Virus genome (UHGV): UHGV-0396296 | Strand: one strand, 5' to 3' | DNA from: a virus | Length of the DNA stretch: 25,960 nt | In this document: one piece after another, positions 2,540-10,877 of the stretch | Layout of the letters: each line of letters starts with the position of its first letter | Position numbering within the stretch: the stretch's first letter is position 1 | The notes under the pieces: generated by a model | The model's database searches: none | Seen by the model: only the letters and a program-made list of their open reading frames with translations | Told to the model about the DNA's origin: nothing | Made by a program: the position numbers and the translations under genes

Positions 2540-2872
2540 TTAATCACCCCGCCCCCACTCTCTGGATATCTGGTTGTCTAATATCCGTATTTGCAGTTTT
2601 ATGGAATTGATATTTTCCTGGGCGGTTTTATACATCGTTTCAGCAATGTCACGCTTTAATCGTTTATCAGCGCAGTCGCCGTATACAACTTTGTCTATCA
2701 GCGTTACGGGCATACCGGAATCCCGGCGGACAAGTGCTTGTTTCTTCAGGTCTAATTTGTAATCGTGTTCTGCTTTGGCGTATTCCCTGCCGTACTTGGC
2801 CATCAGCCGGATAGCCTCGTTTAATCGCTCTGTCAAATCATTCATTTCGTTTATCATCGACAGTCCGCTCAT
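2540..2872 (-). CDS. Hypothetical phage protein (110 aa)
   Basis: ORF translationally coupled to its neighbours. No motif recognised. Confidence 0.45.
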   Translation of the reverse strand: MSGLSMINEMNDLTERLNEAIRLMAKYGREYAKAEHDYKLDLKKQALVRRDSGMPVTLIDKVVYGDCADKRLKRDIAETMYKTAQENINSIKLQIRILDNQISREWGRGD

Positions 2873-3153
2873 AGGTAGTTCCTCCCAAAAATTCTCATAA
2901 AGTCTTCTCTTGTTCCGTGAACTTTTTCAAACGCCTCTTGCCCTTTTTTATGAAGATATTCCATATTTTCTTTGTTGAAATGAACGCCGTTCGGAGGCTC
3001 ATTATGCCAATAATGATTTAAATAAACCCATAGTCCGTATTTTTCCGACAATTTTCTATTGGCTCCTTGGTATAGATGATGTTTTTCCAACCAGTCTGTT
3101 CTGCCGCTTAAATAGCATACCTTTTCAGACTGCATAATACTCTTTGCCATCAC
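2869..3153 (-). CDS. HNH-like nuclease-motif protein (94 aa)
   Basis: Motifs LEKHHL ... GLWVYLNHYWHNEP resemble the HNH beta-beta-alpha core (HH ... N ... H). The canonical Cys pairs are incomplete. Confidence 0.4.
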   Translation of the reverse strand: MMAKSIMQSEKVCYLSGRTDWLEKHHLYQGANRKLSEKYGLWVYLNHYWHNEPPNGVHFNKENMEYLHKKGQEAFEKVHGTREDFMRIFGRNYL

Positions 3154-3703
3154 CTAACACCTCATTTCTATACGTTATTGCACAATTAAGACTTTCAAAA
3201 GTTTTACATATTTCTAAGCTTTTGATGCATACACGGTACATTCCATTCTTTTGGCGGTGTATGTACTTTTCTCCAGTATTCGTTTTTTTACATTTTGTTT
3301 TTGGCTTGCGCATATGTTTTGCCGAATATTTAATATTCTTTGCCTGTGTTGTAATTTCTAAGTTAGAAGCTTTATTATTTAACGTGTCGTAATCAATATG
3401 GTTAATGACTTTATCTTGACCAACACACCCTAAAAACGCTTCTGCCACCAACCTGTGTACGTAGTGATTTTTTTTCACATATAATCCGTTATATTCACGC
3501 CTAAGCCCCACTATTTTATATCCATTTCCATTATCGGTCGGTGTTAATAACTGCCCCTTAATTCGCCTTTCCATGGATTTTCCCCACTGAGTGTTGTTTT
3601 GAGTTATAATTCTGTCAAGAGACCTAACGTTTCCCAAGTTGCTAACCTGATAAAGTCCTTCATATCCCAGTATATCTCGCCATTCTTCCTCAAGCCTTTT
3701 CAT
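3125..3703 (-). CDS. HNH homing endonuclease with NUMOD4-type N-terminal motif
   Basis: 192-aa ORF. WRDILGYEGLYQVSNLGNVRSL is a NUMOD4-like motif, and HRLVAEAFL...INHIDYDTLNN is HNH_3-like. The gene is visibly more AT-rich than its flanks and overlaps both neighbouring genes. Confidence 0.75.
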   Translation of the reverse strand: MKRLEEEWRDILGYEGLYQVSNLGNVRSLDRIITQNNTQWGKSMERRIKGQLLTPTDNGNGYKIVGLRREYNGLYVKKNHYVHRLVAEAFLGCVGQDKVINHIDYDTLNNKASNLEITTQAKNIKYSAKHMRKPKTKCKKTNTGEKYIHRQKNGMYRVCIKSLEICKTFESLNCAITYRNEVLGDGKEYYAV

Positions 3704-4319
3704 CTGCCTCTCCTTTCAAGTCTGCGTAAACCTCCTTGAATCGTTCCACTGTGGTGTCTTTGCCCAGTTTGTAGTCTTTGGACAGTTCAGATGCCTTTAT
3801 GCCCTTCTCGTTTGCCAGTTCCAGCACCTTGCCCCTCCAAATTTCACGCTCTTTTATATCACTTACAACCTCATCCCGGCTCTTTGCGGCGGCTTTCCGT
3901 CTATCCTCGACACTTCCATCAGCTTCGTCCGGCAAATCCTCCCCTGCGTACACATACAGCCCCAGTCCGTGCCTTGCAACAGCTTTTGTCAGGCTCCTTT
4001 GGATAGCTTTGTTCACGTCAAAGCTGGTTACCATGTCCGCTGGGATGGACTTGTTGCGATAGTCCATTACCGGCAAAAACTCTATATGTTCAATTTCGAA
4101 ATCGTCAGTTACAACAGTTACCCCCGTTTTTACCCAACACGTCTTATTGTCAGAAAAGTAGTTCCACTCCAGATCGTTTTGGTAGACGGTATAATAGCTT
4201 CTCGGGTATCGTTTTTTTAGTTCCTTCCAGGCGTTGGCCCACGACAAATACGATAAATCCTTCTTTTTCTCTATCATGCTCCCGCAGTCAACGCTGTTTA
4301 GTTCCTCAAAATAGTTCAT
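3690..4319 (-). CDS. Putative single-strand annealing protein (Rad52/Sak-like, DUF1071-type), uncertain
   Basis: 209-aa ORF with LSYLSWANAW and HGLGLYVYAGEDLP motifs and an acidic/charged C-terminal tail. Family assignment is from memory only. Confidence 0.4.
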   Translation of the reverse strand: MNYFEELNSVDCGSMIEKKKDLSYLSWANAWKELKKRYPRSYYTVYQNDLEWNYFSDNKTCWVKTGVTVVTDDFEIEHIEFLPVMDYRNKSIPADMVTSFDVNKAIQRSLTKAVARHGLGLYVYAGEDLPDEADGSVEDRRKAAAKSRDEVVSDIKEREIWRGKVLELANEKGIKASELSKDYKLGKDTTVERFKEVYADLKGEADEKA

Positions 4320-4513
4320 TCGTCATCCTCCATATGCACCTCTACTGCTACTTCATATGGTCCGTCTTCTTCATCGTTTTTTGTATCGTGGGTAGCCAGT
4401 AACGTCTTTGCAAACGTCATGGCGTCGGCGCTATCATGGAACATCCATCTGTGTTCCTTGCTGTAGCCTTGTCTTCCAACTATTTCGTATCTGAATTTAT
4501 TCATCTTCTTCAA
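4316..4513 (-). CDS. Hypothetical small protein (65 aa, TTG start)
   Basis: ORF track entry. Start is TTG. Overlaps a possible 44-codon ORF (about 4510-4643) in another frame. Confidence 0.35.
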   Translation of the reverse strand: MKKMNKFRYEIVGRQGYSKEHRWMFHDSADAMTFAKTLLATHDTKNDEEDGPYEVAVEVHMEDDE

Positions 4514-4626
4514 CCTCCGCTAAATCGTCTATTATCGGTTCTCCGCTATCATCCCAGCCATACGGGTAGAAATAGTCTGTTCCTTCGCCGTACCAGTCCC
4601 GGCTGTAATGGTTTTCCAACGCTGTA

Positions 4627-4899
4627 TCAGATATTTTGTTCATCGTGTATCACCGCCCTGTACACAGCTACTTTCCGTTTTGTCACATTGTCGTATGCTT
4701 TGCCGATCACCTTCACCGTTCCAGCTTCTTTCATCTCGCTCAGCCGTGGTTTCACGGCATTCAGGTCCGTATACCCCATGCCATAGGCTATCTGCCGGGC
4801 CGTCATGGCGTCATGTCCCATAAATCGCAGGATATCCTGTGCCCTGGTTACCGGTCGCTGTATGTAGCTTTCTAACCTTGTTTCTTTTGTTATTTCCAC
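4627..4899 (-). CDS. Winged-helix DNA-binding protein (MarR/PadR-like regulator)
   Basis: 90-aa ORF, GTG start preceded by AGGAGG. The segment MTARQIAYGMGYTDLNAVKPRLSEMKEAG is wHTH-like. Confidence 0.5.
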   Translation of the reverse strand: MEITKETRLESYIQRPVTRAQDILRFMGHDAMTARQIAYGMGYTDLNAVKPRLSEMKEAGTVKVIGKAYDNVTKRKVAVYRAVIHDEQNI

Positions 4900-5055: not shown

Positions 5056-5439
5056 TCATCGTTTGTCCTCCTTTACCAGTTTTGCGTGGTTCCAGCATGT
5101 CGTGTCGCCGTTGGTACTCCAGCTTGTCTTTCCGTAATCCCACGTAAACACTTCCCCGTCTTCAAATTTCGCAAAATGTCTCGGCCACCACTCCCCACAT
5201 TCGAAATCTCTAACATATATCGGCGTATCCACAGGCACCTTGCTCCAGTCGACTTTTGGCTCTGCGTCAGCTTTGGCTCGTAACCATTTGAGTCGTGCGA
5301 CAGTACAATCAGAGCCGGTGCTATCGTCAAGAGTGCAATCATTACAGCCACGAAGGCCGCACGGGCGTAAGCTATCTCCGAAAAGCCCCCAAGGCGACGC
5401 GGCCAAAATCTCATCCAAATATTTCTCTCTATTCGTCAT
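5056..5439 (-). CDS. Hypothetical Cys-rich phage protein (127 aa)
   Basis: ORF with a GGAGAG RBS. Cys cluster CGLRGCNDC. No family recognised. Confidence 0.45.
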   Translation of the reverse strand: MTNREKYLDEILAASPWGLFGDSLRPCGLRGCNDCTLDDSTGSDCTVARLKWLRAKADAEPKVDWSKVPVDTPIYVRDFECGEWWPRHFAKFEDGEVFTWDYGKTSWSTNGDTTCWNHAKLVKEDKR

Positions 5440-5615
5440 GCCGACTCTCCTTTCTGCATCTGCCTCTCGATGTACAACTTTATCTCCTCATCGGTAAAAA
5501 ACACCTGCGATCCCACATTGAATCCCTTGATCTCTCCCCTTTTCCGCAGCCTCCACAACGTAGTCTTGCTAATTCGCAGAAGCTCCGCAGTCTCTGTCTG
5601 TGTTAATACCTGCAT
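5436..5615 (-). CDS. Excisionase-like / MerR-type HTH_17 DNA-binding protein (59 aa)
   Basis: Start chosen at ATG 5615 (MQVLTQTETAELLRISKTTLWRLRKRGEI) because it follows an AGGAGG RBS. The ORF track start at 5648 lacks an RBS. Confidence 0.55.
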   Translation of the reverse strand: MQVLTQTETAELLRISKTTLWRLRKRGEIKGFNVGSQVFFTDEEIKLYIERQMQKGESA

Positions 5616-5629
5616 AGTGTCCTCCTTTC

Positions 5630-5658
5630 TTGTCCCGCCCGACCACATATGATAAAAT
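5630..5658 (+). promoter_or_regulatory. Candidate sigma70-type promoter for the DUF4145 gene (TTGTCC-N17-TAAAAT)
   Basis: Hexamers read directly, 17-nt spacer, 25 nt upstream of ATG 5684. Diverges from the Xis-like gene. Confidence 0.35.
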
Positions 5659-5683
5659 ACGGTGGAAAGGACGGTGATAATAA

Positions 5684-6346
5684 ATGACCGGATTCAAATG
5701 TCCATATTGTAATTCTGTTTTTCCTTTGACCAGAGATACTCTCCGAGAATGCAAGGCCTATTTCGATCCGCCTAAACCTTACGAAGCTGCTGACAACAGC
5801 GGCATAAATATTTCATTCTACAAATGCCCAAATTGCAACGAATATATAGTGCGTGCTCAAGGCTTTGGTAAACAGGTTCTTGATATAAATTCACAACTGC
5901 GCCCGCTATCTTCCGCAATACAATTCCCTGATTATGTTCCGGAGTCCATACGACAGGACTATAGCGAAGCCTGCGCTATCGTTAATCTCAGTCCTAAAGC
6001 ATCCGCCACTTTATCTCGCAGGTGTCTACAAACTATGATTCGCGACTTCTGGGGCATTACCGAAGCAACGCTTTACAAGGAAATCGAAAGTCTCGACACT
6101 ATTATTCCTTCTACACAGAAAAAAGTACTTCATAGCCTTAGACAAATCGGCAATATCGGTGCCCACCCTGAAGCTGATATCAACACAATCATTGATATCG
6201 AACCCGGCGACGCTGAAAAGCTCATTAAGGTTATCGAGTTCTTTGTTGATAAGTGGTACATCGATCGCCATGAGCAACAGCTTCTGTTTGATGAGATCAA
6301 TAATCTCAACGATGATATGCAGGATAAAAAGAAATCTGATGAGTAG
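5684..6346 (+). CDS. Zinc-ribbon plus DUF4145-domain protein (candidate defence or accessory gene)
   Basis: 220-aa ORF on the opposite strand to the surrounding early operon. N-terminal CPYC...CPNC pairs. C-terminal LHSLRQIGNIGAHPE and SRRCLQTMIRDF match recalled DUF4145 features (lR..GN.gaH). Confidence 0.6.
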   Translation: MTGFKCPYCNSVFPLTRDTLRECKAYFDPPKPYEAADNSGINISFYKCPNCNEYIVRAQGFGKQVLDINSQLRPLSSAIQFPDYVPESIRQDYSEACAIVNLSPKASATLSRRCLQTMIRDFWGITEATLYKEIESLDTIIPSTQKKVLHSLRQIGNIGAHPEADINTIIDIEPGDAEKLIKVIEFFVDKWYIDRHEQQLLFDEINNLNDDMQDKKKSDE

Positions 6347-6368
6347 TGCGCTACTCATTTTCTTTTAT
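6338..6368. terminator. Bidirectional intrinsic terminator (ATGAGTAG-TGCG-CTACTCAT hairpin with flanking T/A runs)
   Basis: Perfect 8-bp stem overlapping the DUF4145 stop, followed by TTTCTTTT on plus and T-rich on minus. Lies between convergent genes. Confidence 0.5.
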
Positions 6369-6569
6369 GAGCATATCCTTCTCAGCAAGCATTTCTCCGT
6401 CTAAGCTCCAATACTGCTTGACACGGCGCACAGGATCTTCCTGGCTACTACCTGAACCTCGCAACGCTATCGTCTCTATCACCTGTATCACTTTTGCGGA
6501 ATCTGTGCCTCTTGGCCTTGCGTGTGCATAATGCTCTTCTTCATTTCCTCTCTCTTTCAAACATTCCAT
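6351..6569 (-). CDS. Hypothetical small protein downstream of cro-like gene (72 aa)
   Basis: Start placed at ATG 6569 (MECLKERG...), 11 nt after AAGGAGG. The track start at 6581 is a GTG too close to the RBS. Confidence 0.4.
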   Translation of the reverse strand: MECLKERGNEEEHYAHARPRGTDSAKVIQVIETIALRGSGSSQEDPVRRVKQYWSLDGEMLAEKDMLIKENE

Positions 6570-6617
6570 TCCTTTTCTCACCTCCTTGTCATGCGACGGC
6601 TTCTGCCACGTTTTGTG

Positions 6618-6821
6618 TCATTGACGAGCAAAAAAAATTTCTTCTACTGACGTACCGTAATATTCTGCAAGTCTTATTTTAATTTCATCACGCGGCACTC
6701 TTTCGCCATTTTCATACATTGACAATGCCGATGGGCTTATACCTGTTGCTCTTGCTACTTCCTCCTGGCTTTTGGCGCCTCGAAGTTTTACAAGTCTTTC
6801 GGATATTACGCTCTTGTCCAT
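6618..6821 (-). CDS. Cro-like XRE-family HTH regulator
   Basis: 67-aa ORF. SQEEVARATGISPSALSMYENGERVP is a canonical XRE HTH. Transcribed divergently from the CI-like gene, towards the replication genes. Confidence 0.7.
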   Translation of the reverse strand: MDKSVISERLVKLRGAKSQEEVARATGISPSALSMYENGERVPRDEIKIRLAEYYGTSVEEIFFARQ

Positions 6822-6847
6822 TGTTCTGCACCTCCTTTCACATCATG

Positions 6848-6925
6848 ATTATATCATTCGCCACAAATCGTGTCAACACATTTTGTGGACTTTTTCTTTA
6901 CTTTTTCCACGAATCGTGTTATTAT
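6848..6925. promoter_or_regulatory. Divergent switch region: consensus leftward promoter (TTGACA-N17-TATAAT on minus), weaker rightward promoter, and three operator-like sites
   Basis: Minus strand -35 at 6871-6876 and -10 at 6848-6853 with a 17-nt spacer. Direct repeats CCACAAATCGTGT (6861-6873) and CCACGAATCGTGT (6907-6919), plus inverted partner ACACATTTTGTGG (6876-6888). Confidence 0.5.
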
Positions 6926-6954
6926 TTGCGTACACCACATATGGAGGGATAGCA

Positions 6955-7266
6955 ATGTCAAAGTTTTCAACGGTTTTTAAAAATTTAAGAATCAATAACG
7001 GATACACGCAACAGGAGCTTGCTAATAGACTTGGCGTTTCACGCAGTGCCGTTGGTATGTATGAAAATGGTGAGCGTGAGCCTGATTTTGAAACGTTAGA
7101 GGCAATAGCTGATTTCTTTAATGTGGACATGGACTATTTAATGGGTAGGAGTAATAAAATCACAACTATCGCCGCCCACCATGAAGGCGAAGAATGGACA
7201 CAGGAAGAACTTGATGAGATAGAAGAGTTTAAGAAATTTGTGAAATCAAAAAGAGATAATAAGTAG
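6955..7266 (+). CDS. CI-like XRE-family HTH repressor
   Basis: ATG 6955 preceded by GGAGGG. YTQQELANRLGVSRSAVGMYENGEREP is an XRE HTH. Followed by an ImmA-like gene. The track ORF start at 6772 is upstream of the promoter region. Confidence 0.7.
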   Translation: MSKFSTVFKNLRINNGYTQQELANRLGVSRSAVGMYENGEREPDFETLEAIADFFNVDMDYLMGRSNKITTIAAHHEGEEWTQEELDEIEEFKKFVKSKRDNK

Positions 7267-7320
7267 TGTCCATACTTTTGGACACTGGGGTCGATATAAT
7301 ACTTTTGGGGAGGTGTTACC

Positions 7321-7704
7321 GTGACGAAGTACGAAGAACTTATGGCAAGATACGACAATCTCCACATCGAGGAACGACCCATGAAAAATGATGGTCTGTA
7401 CGCTGATGATTGTATCTGGATCAATAGGAACATGCCGGAATGCCGCCGGTATTGCACGCTTGCAGAAGAGATCGGACACTATGAGACCAGCGTTGGAGAT
7501 ATATTGGATCAGACCAATACGAATAACCGCCGGCAGGAGCGAGCTGCCCGCAAGTGGGCATACGAGGAAATACTGCCAGTCGAAAATATATTATTCGCCG
7601 CTCAGGATGGACACACTGATATATGGGACATGGCAGAATACTTAGAAGTAGACGAAGCATTTCTAAAGGATGCTTTAAGGCATTATGGGATTTTAGACAT
7701 ATAA
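7321..7704 (+). CDS. ImmA/IrrE-family (M78-like) metallopeptidase homologue with non-canonical EEIGH motif
   Basis: 127-aa ORF, GTG start after GGGGAGG. Pattern IWINRNM...RRYCTLAEEIGHYE...WAYEEILPVE matches ImmA family architecture, but the first His of HExxH is Glu. Confidence 0.6.
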   Translation: MTKYEELMARYDNLHIEERPMKNDGLYADDCIWINRNMPECRRYCTLAEEIGHYETSVGDILDQTNTNNRRQERAARKWAYEEILPVENILFAAQDGHTDIWDMAEYLEVDEAFLKDALRHYGILDI

Positions 7705-7782: not shown

Positions 7783-8262
7783 ATGAGTGAATTTAATGAG
7801 AAACCTAAAAAGAAATTTTATAAGCGTTGGTGGTTTTGGCTAATAGTGGCCGTGGTAGTCATCGGCGTAGGTGGTGCCGCCGGGAGCGGCGGTGATGATC
7901 CTGCCGATACAAAAACAGCGCAAACCGAGCAAACAGAAGAAGCGACAGAGGCAACAGAAGCAACGGAAGCCCTCACGACCGGACAAAGAAATGCTCTCGG
8001 CTCCGCAGAGTCTTACCTTTCCGCTATGCCGTTCTCATATTCAGGGCTAATAGAACAGCTTGAATATGAAGGATACTCAACAGAGGACGCTACTTATGCC
8101 GCTGACAATTGTGGTGCAGATTGGAATGAACAAGCTGCGTTATCCGCAGAGGATTATTTGGATATTATGTCTTTTTCGCGCGACGGGTTAATAGAGCAGT
8201 TGGTATATGAAGGCTTTACGCAGGAACAAGCTGAATATGGTGCATCCGCTGTTGGTTATTAA
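7783..8262 (+). CDS. ltp: Ltp-family surface lipoprotein/membrane protein (superinfection-exclusion type)
   Basis: N-terminal TM segment WWFWLIVAVVVIGVGG, TEATEATEATEA linker, and two tandem Ltp repeats (AESYLSAMPFSYSGLIEQLEYEGYS...DNCGADWNEQA and AEDYLDIMSFSRDGLIEQLVYEGFT). RBS AAAGGAG. Confidence 0.75.
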   Translation: MSEFNEKPKKKFYKRWWFWLIVAVVVIGVGGAAGSGGDDPADTKTAQTEQTEEATEATEATEALTTGQRNALGSAESYLSAMPFSYSGLIEQLEYEGYSTEDATYAADNCGADWNEQAALSAEDYLDIMSFSRDGLIEQLVYEGFTQEQAEYGASAVGY

Positions 8263-8474
8263 GAATAACAAATAATGTAAAGCCATTTAAACGAAAAAAG
8301 GGGTATTGAGATTGTGGGTTGATAGCTTTCTGCAAACGACGTATATGATATTTTTTAACCGCAAATTAGTACTAAATTTCAAGAAAACAGTAATTTTTTT
8401 CTTGAATATATAAGTTTTTGTATATTATGCTAAACATTTTCAGCATTTCAATAACAAAAAAGTAACAATAAACA

Positions 8475-8503
8475 TTGACATTTTAAAGCGCTCAGCGTAT
8501 TAT
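8475..8503 (+). promoter_or_regulatory. Candidate promoter upstream of the Abi gene (TTGACA-N17-TATTAT)
   Basis: Hexamers read directly in an AT-rich intergenic region. Confidence 0.4.
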
Positions 8504-8516
8504 AATATTAACAGAT

Positions 8517-8580
8517 CCCGCTGGGCTTCTAGGATATCTTTGATATCCAAGCAAAAATACAGCGGGCCTTTTGCTTTTTT
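8517..8580 (+). terminator. Terminator-like hairpin in the leader of the Abi gene (outer stem CCCGCTG/CAGCGGG, inner GGATATC-TTT-GATATCC, then TTTTGCTTTTTT)
   Basis: Read directly. Lies between the candidate promoter and ATG 8596. Confidence 0.4.
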
Positions 8581-8595
8581 GGGAGAAACAAAGTA

Positions 8596-9501
8596 ATGGA
8601 TCAAAAACCATACAAAACAATTGATGAACAAGTTGAAATTTTAAAAGACCGCGGGTTAATCATAAGTGATGAGGATTATGCAAAACGGTGTCTTACTCAA
8701 CTCAATTATTATCGTTTAAGTGGCTATACTTTGACATTACGAAAAAATAATAGCTTTTACAAAAACATAACTTTTGAAAACGTAATGGATATATATAACT
8801 TTGATCGTCAACTTAAACTTTATGTGTTAAATTATCTTGAAGACATCGAAATATCGTTGCGTACTCACATAGGTTATATTTTAGGAAGCATGGATTCAGA
8901 CAAACCAGCGTATCTTAATGCTGGTTGCTATATAAGCGATGCTCATTACAACAGAGTCCTTGAAGAACTGAAGGATGCCCTTGCTGACAGTAAAAATGAA
9001 GCCTTTGTAAAGCACCACCAGACAAAATACCGCGGAAGCCTTCCTTCATGGGTAATGGTCGAAACATTATCGTTCGGAGCGCTTTCAAGACTCTTTTCAT
9101 CGCTTAAGCAAGACATAAAATGTGACATCTGTGATGCTTATTATAACCAAATCCGCCCACAAGTTGTTGAAAATCTTCTAGAAGGTTTAGTTGTTCTTCG
9201 TAATATATGCGCTCATCATTCCCGCATATATAATCGAGGCATCCCAAACACACCTAAGATGTCTAAAGTAGATAATGATTTTTTTATAGATAATGGATAT
9301 GAGCGAAATGAAATAGGAAAAAAATTATTCTTCAGACTCGTAATCATAGACCGATTGATAGAGGATGCTAATTTTTTAAGCAAAATGATATCTGATATAG
9401 ATGCATTGTCTTATAAATATCCTTTTGTTCAACTCAGGCATTATGGTTTTAAAGCAGACTGGAAAAACATGGTTTCAGAAATTAATAAACAATATAAATA
9501 A
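8596..9501 (+). CDS. Abortive infection protein, Abi_2 family (AbiD/AbiF-like)
   Basis: 301-aa ORF. KTIDEQVEILKDRGL, LNYYRLSGYTLTLR, HHQ...LPSWVMVETLSFGALSRLF and LRNICAHHSRIYNRG match recalled hallmarks of Abi_2 proteins. The gene and its upstream region are markedly AT-rich. Confidence 0.8.
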   Translation: MDQKPYKTIDEQVEILKDRGLIISDEDYAKRCLTQLNYYRLSGYTLTLRKNNSFYKNITFENVMDIYNFDRQLKLYVLNYLEDIEISLRTHIGYILGSMDSDKPAYLNAGCYISDAHYNRVLEELKDALADSKNEAFVKHHQTKYRGSLPSWVMVETLSFGALSRLFSSLKQDIKCDICDAYYNQIRPQVVENLLEGLVVLRNICAHHSRIYNRGIPNTPKMSKVDNDFFIDNGYERNEIGKKLFFRLVIIDRLIEDANFLSKMISDIDALSYKYPFVQLRHYGFKADWKNMVSEINKQYK

Positions 9502-9621
9502 AACAAAAGCCCCCATCTCTGGGAGCTGATGTATAAGGGCTGTATGATACAACCCAGCGTCGCAACTGAATTGTATCATCTCAGCCCGAAAAAGTCAATT
9601 TTCGGGTATCTTTATGCCCTG

Positions 9622-9655
9622 AACCTAACAAATCTTTGAAAGGTTTTGTTAGGTT
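9622..9655. promoter_or_regulatory. Perfect 11-bp inverted repeat (AACCTAACAAA-N12-TTTGTTAGGTT) upstream of the integrase gene
   Basis: Read directly, 38 nt upstream of int ATG 9693. Adjacent AAGGTT direct repeats. Confidence 0.4.
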
Positions 9656-9692
9656 TTAAAAGGTTCAAGCAAGGTTTAAAGGAGATGATACA

Positions 9693-10877
9693 ATGCCAGG
9701 AACGAAACAGAAACGAGGAACAGACAGCTGGACCCTGCACGTCAGAGCCGGCACTGATTTTAGGGGAAAGCCCATAAGATATACCAAAACAGTACACTGC
9801 AAAAGCGAAGCAGCTGCAGACAGGGAACTCGCCCTGTTTTATGCAGATTGCGTAAACGGCCGGGTCAACAGATCTACACCTATAACAGTAGCAGAGCTTG
9901 CCGACCAGTGGTATGAAGAGTACGTACTGCGGCACTTAAAGGTCAGCGCCCGGCGTGGCATAGATCCCGCCATAAAGATGTGGATAAAGCCACTACTTGG
10001 AAATAAGAAGGTTTCTAAAGTACAGCGCCTCGATGTGCAAAAATGGGTAAATTACGTTTCCGATCCGCAGGAGCGTACGAACAAGAGGGGCGAAAAAGTT
10101 ATAAAGCAGCTCTCCCCTAAGACTGTACGAAATTACTACTCTGCGCTTCGCGGTATGTTTGATTTTGCGGTCGATATGGGGATCATCGAGGACACTCCCT
10201 GTAAAAATATCCGTATGCCGAAAAAGGATCATAAAGAGGCCACCTACTTTTCTATAGAGGAAGTAAATGTCCTTCTAGAAGCCCTGAGCGCCTTACAGAG
10301 CGACGAACTGCGCTACAAGGTAGCGATTTACCTCGGGCTGTTTGGCGGCCTCAGGAAAGGTGAAATAATGGGATTAAACAGAGAGGATATTAACTTTGAG
10401 CGAGGCGAAATAGCAATCCGGCGTACAAGGATGATAAAACCGAAGGAAGGCGTCTACGAAGACACGCCCAAGACGGATAAATCCATAAGGACGGTCGCCC
10501 TACCTCCGGAGGTTATGGCAGAGATCCTGTGCCTGATCGCGCAACAAAAGGAGCAGAAACTGCAGCTTCAGAACCAGTACCATGACTCCCCTGCCCTGCT
10601 CCGTAACGACCACGGGGACCCACTGTACCCGCAGGTGCTGCAGAGGTGGTTTACCCGATTCCTGGAGAAAAATGGCTTACCTCACGCTGGCCTGCATTCT
10701 CTAAGACACACACACGCCTCAATGCTCGTATATCTTGGTACGGATAAAATGCAGGTCAGCTCCAGACTGGGTCACTCTCAGCTATCGACTACGCTAAATA
10801 TTTACACGCACTTATTTGAAAACGCCGACAAAAAAATAGCGGAAGATCTGTCATCGAACTTCCTAAAAGCTCGCTAG
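9693..10877 (+). CDS. int: Tyrosine site-specific integrase (phage integrase family)
   Basis: 394-aa ORF. C-terminal catalytic signature LFGGLRKGE...HSLRHTHASMLV...LGHSQLSTTLNIYTHL (R, H-x-x-R, Y). N-terminal SAM-like region. Confidence 0.9.
   Translation: MPGTKQKRGTDSWTLHVRAGTDFRGKPIRYTKTVHCKSEAAADRELALFYADCVNGRVNRSTPITVAELADQWYEEYVLRHLKVSARRGIDPAIKMWIKPLLGNKKVSKVQRLDVQKWVNYVSDPQERTNKRGEKVIKQLSPKTVRNYYSALRGMFDFAVDMGIIEDTPCKNIRMPKKDHKEATYFSIEEVNVLLEALSALQSDELRYKVAIYLGLFGGLRKGEIMGLNREDINFERGEIAIRRTRMIKPKEGVYEDTPKTDKSIRTVALPPEVMAEILCLIAQQKEQKLQLQNQYHDSPALLRNDHGDPLYPQVLQRWFTRFLEKNGLPHAGLHSLRHTHASMLVYLGTDKMQVSSRLGHSQLSTTLNIYTHLFENADKKIAEDLSSNFLKAR

Follow-up and report, generated by a model that had tools for sequence, protein, structure and literature searches.

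A RAZR (PD-T7-4)-family gene and a convergent small gene form a mobile two-gene cassette in temperate phages of Firmicutes

We analyzed a 25,960-nucleotide (nt) stretch of viral DNA (UHGV virus genome UHGV-0396296; referred to here as the window) and, within it, an open reading frame (ORF) of 220 amino acids (aa) with an ATG start at 5684-6346 on the plus strand, which is the sole plus-strand gene within a run of minus-strand early genes. The encoded protein has the zinc-ribbon/HEPN architecture and the intact catalytic residues of the RAZR (ring-activated zinc-finger RNase; formerly PD-T7-4) family, and phage copies of its gene are one half of a conserved and mobile convergent cassette, the other half of which is a small gene of family phrog_14088. 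Taken alone, the 220-aa gene is a distant new member of a known defense family; the two-gene arrangement in phages is new, RAZR having so far been characterized only as a single gene in Escherichia coli. The explanation that best fits the whole, to which we assign a probability of about 0.72, is that of a RAZR-family abortive-infection RNase of Firmicute phages in a convergent cassette, with the small protein as its putative antidote.

Domain architecture and membership in the RAZR family

The 220-aa protein is organized as follows.

Residues ~1-73: zinc-ribbon sensor domain (C6, C9, C48, and C51).
Residues ~74-93: linker.
Residues 94-185: DUF4145/HEPN RNase domain (R153, codon 6140-6142; H161, codon 6164-6166), with a long C-terminal helix after it.

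An earlier reading of this DNA, made from the letters alone (here, the sequence-only reading), had pointed to an N-terminal zinc ribbon (CPYC...CPNC) and a similarity to DUF4145, and both held. The four cysteines (CPYC, C6 and C9; CPNC, C48 and C51) are invariant among 30 homologs of 50 to 83% identity, as are R153, G156 to A160, and H161 of the motif LRQIGNIGAH. A Pfam search matched the full-length DUF4145 profile (PF13643, positions 1-88 of 88) to residues 94-185 (E = 1.8e-15; 57 bits against a cutoff of 23.1). Residues of the linker and domain edge (P74, P82, Y84, P86, D92, Y93, and E95) are invariant in the clade, and indels among homologs are confined to the inter-knuckle region. The AlphaFold model (mean pLDDT, 79.6) has a beta-rich N-terminal domain (pLDDT, 76 to 93) and a helical C-terminal domain; the C-terminal half has the HEPN fold, with the catalytic Arg and His intact. 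Across 148 unique sequences of the clade, no part of the protein evolves faster than the zinc-finger half, which is nearly twice as divergent as the HEPN half (mean pairwise distances of 0.69 and 0.37, respectively).

PD-T7-4 was found as a single-gene abortive-infection system by functional selection in E. coli (Vassallo et al. 2022, PMC9519451) and was renamed RAZR by Zhang et al. (Nature 2026, PMC13017515); its source hosts are E. coli UMB1727 and Klebsiella variicola. According to the latter study (PMC13017515), the zinc-finger domain (ZFD), which is the most variable part of RAZR and determines its specificity, binds 24-mer rings of the Erf-like recombinase Gp77 or 12-mer portal rings. 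RAZR forms a 24-mer around the ring, and its DUF4145/HEPN domain (R146 and H154) then cuts single-stranded RNA nonspecifically. The phage ring proteins around which it assembles are ~170 Å across, and activation has an abortive-infection phenotype; E. coli RAZR requires no partner and is not toxic alone. The remark of the sequence-only reading that no mechanism had been assigned is outdated, since the combination of zinc ribbon and DUF4145 is the architecture of RAZR, for which trigger, structure, and RNase activity were published in 2026.

Comparison with defense-system profiles, which the same reading had suggested, gave a match to PADLOC PD-T7-4 (E = 1.7e-18; residues 3-208 against profile positions 13-198 of 211). 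The only relative with a solved structure was chain OA of PDB 9y9c (24 copies, 219 aa; E = 7e-10 with a single sequence and 2e-12 with a profile). Because this chain has the sequence of E. coli RAZR, we identify it with the RAZR subunit of the published RAZR-Gp77 24-mer. Its RIVGNQAVH aligns with RQIGNIGAH of the window protein, and R153 and H161 align with RAZR R146 and H154 (9y9c and P0122) at the same R-x7-H spacing. The hhalign alignment to 24 enterobacterial RAZR proteins (probability, 98.4%; E = 4e-15) starts at the second CxxC, which pairs with C49/C52 of those proteins, and continues through the whole of the HEPN domain. Residues 72-93 correspond to RAZR residues 64-85 (the conserved linker P..P.MP....DY.EA). 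D179, at the dimer-dimer interface of RAZR, is matched by D189 of the window protein, but RAZR D180 is matched by K and R184 by D. As far as sequence can tell, the window protein has all of the structural features of RAZR that can be assessed in this way (i.e., Cys4 ribbon, linker, DUF4145/HEPN domain, catalytic Arg/His, and variable ZFD).

A convergent two-gene cassette

The elements of the cassette and its immediate neighbors, including two helix-turn-helix (HTH) genes, are listed below (RBS, ribosome-binding site).

5600..6590, no strand: mobile cassette (promoter, RNase gene, hairpin, and small gene), ~100% identical to contig L012.
5630..5658, plus strand: candidate RNase-gene promoter (-35 TTGTCC, 17-nt spacer, extended -10 TGaTAAAAT).
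5684..6346, plus strand: RAZR/PD-T7-4-family gene, 220 aa (domain, profile, and homolog evidence).
6338..6359, no strand: inverted repeat resembling a bidirectional terminator (9-bp stem plus A-tract/T-tract), covering both stop codons and the last codons.
6351..6569, minus strand: small convergent partner gene, 72 aa (ATG at 6569; RBS AAGGAGGTG; phrog_14088).
5436..5648, minus strand: HTH_17 excisionase-like gene (RBS-supported ATG at 5615; Pfam E = 1.3e-12).
6618..6821, minus strand: Cro-like HTH gene, first of the early lytic operon (HTH_3 E = 4.9e-14).
6848..6876, minus strand: early lytic PR-like promoter (TTGACA-17-TATAAT with TG extension, 12/12).

The sequence-only reading had placed the 220-aa gene against the direction of a minus-strand operon, between an Xis-like gene and the Cro side, and the HTH_17 and HTH_3 neighbors bear this out. 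It had also called the gene a stand-alone copy. The gene does have its own expression signals (see below), but the description was incomplete, as it overlooked a near-obligate convergent partner of 72 aa. This partner was found in 79 of 80 IMG/VR loci; in the remaining one, the contig ends <200 bp from the RNase gene.

Neighbors were tallied over 98 loci with a simple codon-model gene caller, which reproduces the gene map of the window. On viral contigs, the RNase gene is antisense to both neighbors in 74 of 77 loci and convergent with its downstream neighbor in 78 of 79. In 76 of 78 loci, the 3' ends of the two genes are separated by ≤22 bp, frequent arrangements being a gap of 4 or 0 bp and an overlap of 25 nt. 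BLAST clustering assigned the downstream neighbor to one family in 93 of the 98 loci, and a recheck with hidden Markov models (HMMs) raised this to 96, leaving only L010 and L011 (chromosomal island copy) without the small partner. Upstream positions -1, -2, and -3 hold many unrelated clusters, the largest accounting for ≤11 of ~95 loci, and the position beyond the small gene is also diverse, save for a broad HTH (Cro/cI-like) cluster (25 of 94). In species-representative genomes, the partner is present at 53 of 80 loci; the 27 loci without it include at least 12 co-directional chromosomal arrays.

The mobility of the cassette is seen in a comparison of the window with contig L012. The two DNAs are ~100% identical over exactly 5600-6590, i.e., from the promoter through the RNase gene and the hairpin to the small gene. 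Identity falls to 40 to 92% on the left of this block; on the right, there is no homology from 6590 to 7462, and the cro/cI region of L012 is a different one. Beside these identical cassettes the recombinase has been swapped, the window having a Sak (Rad52-like) gene (3690-4319, minus strand) and L012 an ERF gene (3322-3909). The recombinase families of Sak and ERF are both ring-forming, and Gp77, the known trigger of RAZR, is itself Erf-like. The pair of RNase gene and small gene also occurs deep in long same-strand gene runs, away from cro.

A set of 119 viral loci was selected via the small gene, with a narrower alignment and a single sequence as the query, and this sample is biased to close relatives. 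It comprised 83 loci with the present RNase clade in convergent orientation and ~14 with a second zinc-ribbon clade (described below); in about 16 to 20 loci (~15% of those selected via the small gene), the small gene had no zinc-ribbon/HEPN gene beside it. The dependency is asymmetric, in that no phage-borne RNase copy lacked the small gene, whereas the small gene can stand alone.

Such solitary small genes, together with a pair of loci (L130 and L121) between which the RNase gene alone has been exchanged and the small gene retained, suggest an alternative to a functional pair: the RNase gene may work alone, and the small gene may be an ordinary early gene whose 3' end is a recombination hotspot for cargo. 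Prophage cargo hotspots are well documented (PMC9519451), and the single-gene E. coli RAZR, partner-free and nontoxic, fits this alternative and speaks against a dedicated antidote. We nevertheless judge a mere hotspot unlikely. The cargo is not an assortment of genes but nearly always a zinc ribbon plus DUF4145, drawn from two barely matching clades, and the pairing holds in 79 of the 80 viral loci. The pair is also found far from cro and so moves as a pair, the L012 identity block covers both genes exactly, and the divergence of the small protein tracks that of the RNase as closely as the two halves of the RNase track each other.

The small protein belongs to phrog_14088 (members of ~55 to 85 aa; function label, unknown), a family for which we found no Pfam, PADLOC, or NCBIfam-style name. 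Its conserved core reads RPRGTDSAKVIQVIETxxLRGxG..DPxRxVxQYWxxxGxxLAExD. A 40-residue core is modeled by AlphaFold as a three-stranded beta meander with pLDDT of 86 to 95, and a fold search with the predicted structure returned no match. The gene is maintained as a protein-coding one, with HMM E-values of 1e-21 to 1e-30 across streptococcal and clostridial phages and a strong RBS. Two homologs of 55 to 58 aa (P0250 and P0267) bear the NCBI/UniRef name "carboxypeptidase," apparently in error, as neither contains a recognizable protease domain.

Expression signals

For the RNase gene, the sequence-only reading had proposed the promoter TTGTCC-N17-TAAAAT. As a single site (5630-5658), it does not rise above chance: it scores only 9/12, and five such sites occur in the region against 3.5 ± 2.0 in shuffled sequences. 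We accept the promoter because its -10 box is conserved across relatives, not from the single-site scan. Nearly all relatives have a perfect or extended -10 (TGnTATAAT) 24 to 35 nt before the start codon or, in 12 loci, ~52 nt before it. It is kept whatever the upstream neighbor, and the window site aligns with those of L013 and L015.

The bidirectional terminator that had been proposed corresponds to a hairpin at 6338-6359 with A-/T-tracts, which resembles an intrinsic terminator. Its minimum free energy (MFE) is -15.4 kcal/mol on the plus strand and -19.4 kcal/mol on the minus strand (z = -1.8 and -2.5, respectively), and the T-run follows directly after the stem on the plus strand and after a 4-nt spacer on the minus strand. 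Clostridial-type loci keep the hairpin as AAAGAAAAnnGAGTAG-nnnn-CTACTCnnTTTTCTTTT, a palindrome of 12 to 16 bp with A-/T-tract flanks (MFE, -14 to -25 kcal/mol). Because the hairpin spans the coding ends, both proteins have conserved K/E-rich C-terminal tails. Streptococcal-type loci have no hairpin and have a 25-nt 3' overlap instead.

Within the lytic operon, the small gene takes second place behind cro, and no terminator was found between it and the Cro-like gene; the two would be co-transcribed from the early lytic promoter. A promoter-like site on the minus strand (TGGACA-16-TATTAT, 10/12; 5704-5677) lies in the first RNase codons and points at the HTH_17 gene. It faces the RNase promoter, with the predicted start sites a few bases apart, and could restart early transcription past the hairpin or compete with the RNase promoter.

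This layout raises the alternative that control is exerted at the RNA level, with convergent lytic transcription silencing the RNase gene (by interference or antisense RNA) and the small ORF serving mainly as a transcribed spacer. Consistent with it are the antisense position of the RNase gene between its flanks (74 of 77 viral loci), the overlap of 3' ends by 11 to 47 nt in many loci (-25 in the streptococcal type), and the promoter-like site facing the RNase promoter. We regard it as improbable, since the small ORF is conserved as a protein, with a strong RBS and a confident AlphaFold core. The conserved bidirectional terminator between the genes of Clostridial-type loci would limit antisense read-through, and silencing of the gene would leave in place the RNase protein already present.

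Distribution of homologs

Homologs formed 5,779 clusters at E ≤ 1e-3, from Clostridia, Lachnospiraceae, Streptococcus, Enterococcus, Levilactobacillus, Vagococcus, Paenibacillus, and others. An IMG/VR contig (UViG_3300045988_139212) is identical to the window (100%) over the 220-aa gene. In the Streptococcus phages SM1 (gp7), PH15, IPP16, and Javan173, the homolog is antisense and lies one to three genes downstream of cro. Prophages from gut metagenomes have the same antisense layout despite their tyrosine/serine integrases, ERF/RecT/Sak recombinases, or PcfJ-type early genes. One Lachnospiraceae copy lies in a chromosomal island with an AAA_21 ATPase, an STM3845 and reverse-transcriptase (retron-type) pair, and RelB/YafQ. 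The variety of replication modules and the chromosomal-island copy indicate that the gene is accessory cargo, and the possibility raised in the sequence-only reading that it might be a core replication gene was not borne out. Homologs of 41 to 48% identity also occur on contigs binned to Bacteroides, Muribaculaceae, Oxalobacter, and Leptospira (L274, L278, L291, and L293); the small partner is present in L274 and L278 and absent from L291 and L293. These contigs are either cross-phylum transfers or mis-binned Firmicute phage contigs.

The sequence-only reading had also favored a lysogenic-conversion gene for defense or antidefense. Membership in the PD-T7-4/RAZR family agrees with defense, as do the chromosomal defense island and the Ltp and Abi_2 genes of the window's lysogeny module; antidefense found no support and was rejected as a role for the 220-aa gene, because the protein matches a validated defense family and has its catalytic residues intact.

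Alternatively, the protein might serve the phage's own program, as a DNA-binding regulator, a host shutoff RNase, or the toxin of an addiction module. The gene does adjoin the genetic switch, and phrog_1305 and the GenBank entries for SM1 gp7 and PH15 carry the label "DNA binding protein." We rejected this label because no DNA-binding domain was detected and the fold is HEPN, with catalytic Arg and His intact. With an orientation opposite to that of the lytic operon and a promoter of its own, the gene does not have the layout of a lytically expressed one, and copies reside in chromosomal defense islands without any phage. There is no MNT-type antitoxin, and the small gene would be repressed in lysogens, unlike the antitoxin gene of a classical toxin-antitoxin system. 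We rejected the latter category because the putative antidote lies in a repressed lytic operon and E. coli RAZR is nontoxic alone. A role in the phage's own program is, on balance, very improbable.

Proposed mechanism and significance

In the mechanism that we propose for the RAZR-family RNase and its partner, a lysogen would make the RNase from the gene's own promoter, by analogy with the work on E. coli (PMC13017515). The variable ZFD would recognize large rings of a superinfecting phage (e.g., portals or ring-forming recombinases), and the RNase would polymerize around the ring, so that its HEPN sites become active, RNA is cleaved nonspecifically, and the infection is aborted. The small protein would be an immediate-early product made together with Cro, and its linkage to the RNase gene suggests that it neutralizes or retunes the resident RNase. 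It would thereby keep the prophage's own Sak/ERF ring and portal from triggering the RNase after induction, and phages that have only the small gene may thereby evade defense of the RAZR type. A generic antidote fits better than trigger avoidance tuned through the ZFD, because identical RNase genes accompany different recombinases and because chromosomal copies manage without a partner.

Several observations, besides the partner-free action of E. coli RAZR mentioned above, weigh against this explanation. The window protein is only ~24% identical to E. coli RAZR, and the first knuckle and the inter-knuckle region cannot be aligned by sequence. The structure prediction and fold search that the sequence-only reading had suggested did yield the helical HEPN half, but Foldseek against the PDB returned generic HEPN domains only, not 9y9c; for this reason, the link to RAZR is based on sequence and profile evidence. 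The pairing rate of 85% among loci selected via the small gene is biased upward, as these loci were found with peptide patterns from RNase-linked copies. A co-variation test of pairwise distances points to neither domain of the RNase: Spearman coefficients of the small protein against the ZFD and HEPN halves were 0.38 and 0.37 (partial, 0.28 and 0.27), values confounded by shared inheritance. Finally, efficient termination at the shared hairpin would leave the expression of the downstream early genes unexplained.

With these points in mind, we suggest only tentatively, and at less than even odds, that the 72-aa partner may represent the first inhibitor of a RAZR-type RNase to be found in nature, i.e., a self-immunity protein in a 1-kb "defense plus key" cassette. 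If this is true, phages with the same key, or with the key alone, could superinfect lysogens carrying the lock. Should the partner prove irrelevant, what remains is an ordinary new addition to a known defense family. The layout is fixed in temperate phages of Streptococcus, Lachnospiraceae, Enterococcus, Lactobacillaceae, and other Firmicutes, the RNase gene being antisense, preceded by an extended -10, and ending at the small gene. The same small gene accompanies two zinc-ribbon/HEPN clades, and it offers a candidate anti-RAZR protein and a handle on self-tolerance in prophage-encoded abortive infection. The RAZR paper (PMC13017515) does not address how a prophage would tolerate its own portal or recombinase rings, and the word "prophage" is absent from it. 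Neither the near-obligate partner nor the 1-kb mobile cassette is mentioned in the portions consulted of that paper, of a review covering RAZR, or of the discovery paper.

A second zinc-ribbon clade

The second clade that pairs with the small gene consists of phage proteins of 221 to 276 aa with a CPxC...CxxC N terminus and a HEPN-like motif, GND(E/Q)THY (L119-L178 and L300-L310). Against the window's clade, hhalign gave a probability of 67%; Pfam DUF4145 matches were borderline (E = 5.6e-5 to 0.05), and PADLOC did not recognize these proteins. From sequence comparison, these proteins appear to form an undescribed RAZR-like clade, which is frequent among phage contigs from the human gut; no description of it was found in the libraries or literature searched. 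The clade, which includes gp14 of Streptococcus phage SM1 and IPP16_00014, resembles the window's clade in size, CxxC...CxxC pattern, and HEPN-like C terminus. Its genes likewise lie antisense within the early operon, and in many gut phages they too have the small gene as convergent partner. P0305 and P0301, very abundant gut variants of the small protein, pair with this clade.

Phage SM1 (L001) has three plus-strand genes for proteins of ~220 aa, antisense in the early operon (1662-2339, 2739-3398, and 3980-4660), each overlapping a small minus-strand gene at its 3' end (gp7/gp6, gp11/gp10, and gp14/gp13). Of these proteins, gp7 is a member of the clade of the window protein, and gp14 falls in the second one; gp11 and the product of a 233-aa gene in L004 (3453-4154) match neither. 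Among gp6, gp10, and gp13, only gp6 is detectably phrog_14088.

Other features of the prophage locus

To the left of the HTH_17 gene lie an HNH/NUMOD4 endonuclease gene, then the gene for the Sak single-strand annealing protein and replication genes. The endonuclease gene (NUMOD4/HNH_3, homing-endonuclease-like; 3125-3703, minus strand) is situated between the recombinase gene and downstream early genes, and L012 has one too. Farther right is a plus-strand lysogeny module encoding a cI-like repressor, an ImmA/IrrE protease, an Ltp lipoprotein, an Abi_2 protein, and a tyrosine integrase; with its repressor and integrase, this module identifies the element as a temperate phage.

The Ltp-type lipoprotein (7783-8262, plus strand) has two Lipoprotein_Ltp repeats (Pfam E = 6.4e-31). 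The Ltp family is known from superinfection exclusion by Streptococcus thermophilus phage TP-J34. The Abi_2 (AbiD/F-like) abortive-infection gene (8596-9501, plus strand; Pfam E = 2.6e-51) adjoins the integrase gene and lies within a stretch of low G+C content (~8100-9700; 32 to 39% against 43 to 50% around it). Abi_2 occupies the same integrase-side slot in many related prophages, among them L004, L006, L007, L012, L015-L018, and Streptococcus phage IPP16. The lysogeny side of the phage thus comprises three separate candidate anti-phage genes (i.e., the RNase, Ltp, and Abi_2 genes).

Base composition sets the RNase gene apart from its neighbors despite a similar G+C content. GC skew is negative throughout 5700-6300, at -0.14 to -0.19, with AT skew close to 0, whereas the coding strand of all other genes of the region is rich in G and A.

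Comparison with known systems

The window protein and RAZR are both of ~220 aa, with an N-terminal Cys4 ribbon, a conserved linker, an R-x7-H HEPN domain, and a C-terminal helix; the zinc-finger half is hypervariable in both, and both are carried on mobile elements. They differ in the spacing of the Cys pairs (38 residues in the window protein and 29 in RAZR) and in their hosts (Firmicute phages and Enterobacteria, respectively). The E. coli RAZR gene follows an integrase gene co-directionally with an 8-bp overlap and has no partner, whereas the window gene is antisense in a lytic operon, with the small gene convergent to it. As a system, RAZR consists of one gene; phage copies of the present family have the small gene alongside in 79 of 80 viral loci.

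Among HEPN proteins more widely, the canonical spacing is R-x4-6-H. The window protein has the HEPN fold with the noncanonical R-x7-H spacing, as does RAZR. HEPN-MNT systems (SO_3166/5yep and 7ae2), Csm6, and AbiV differ from the window system, which has no MNT antitoxin or CARF domain; neither neighbor of the RNase gene contains an NTase domain, and the small partner is convergent and without a Pfam match. Relative to HEPN RNase toxins, the window protein is distinguished by a zinc ribbon as its sensor. For the small partner, the HEPN RNase toxins RnlA/LsoA and the phage T4 early protein Dmd (PDB 5hy3) provide an analogy, although no sequence or fold similarity between the partner and Dmd was found. 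The arrangement departs from that of RnlA/LsoA and Dmd in that the putative antidote is encoded by the RNase's own element, convergent to the RNase gene.

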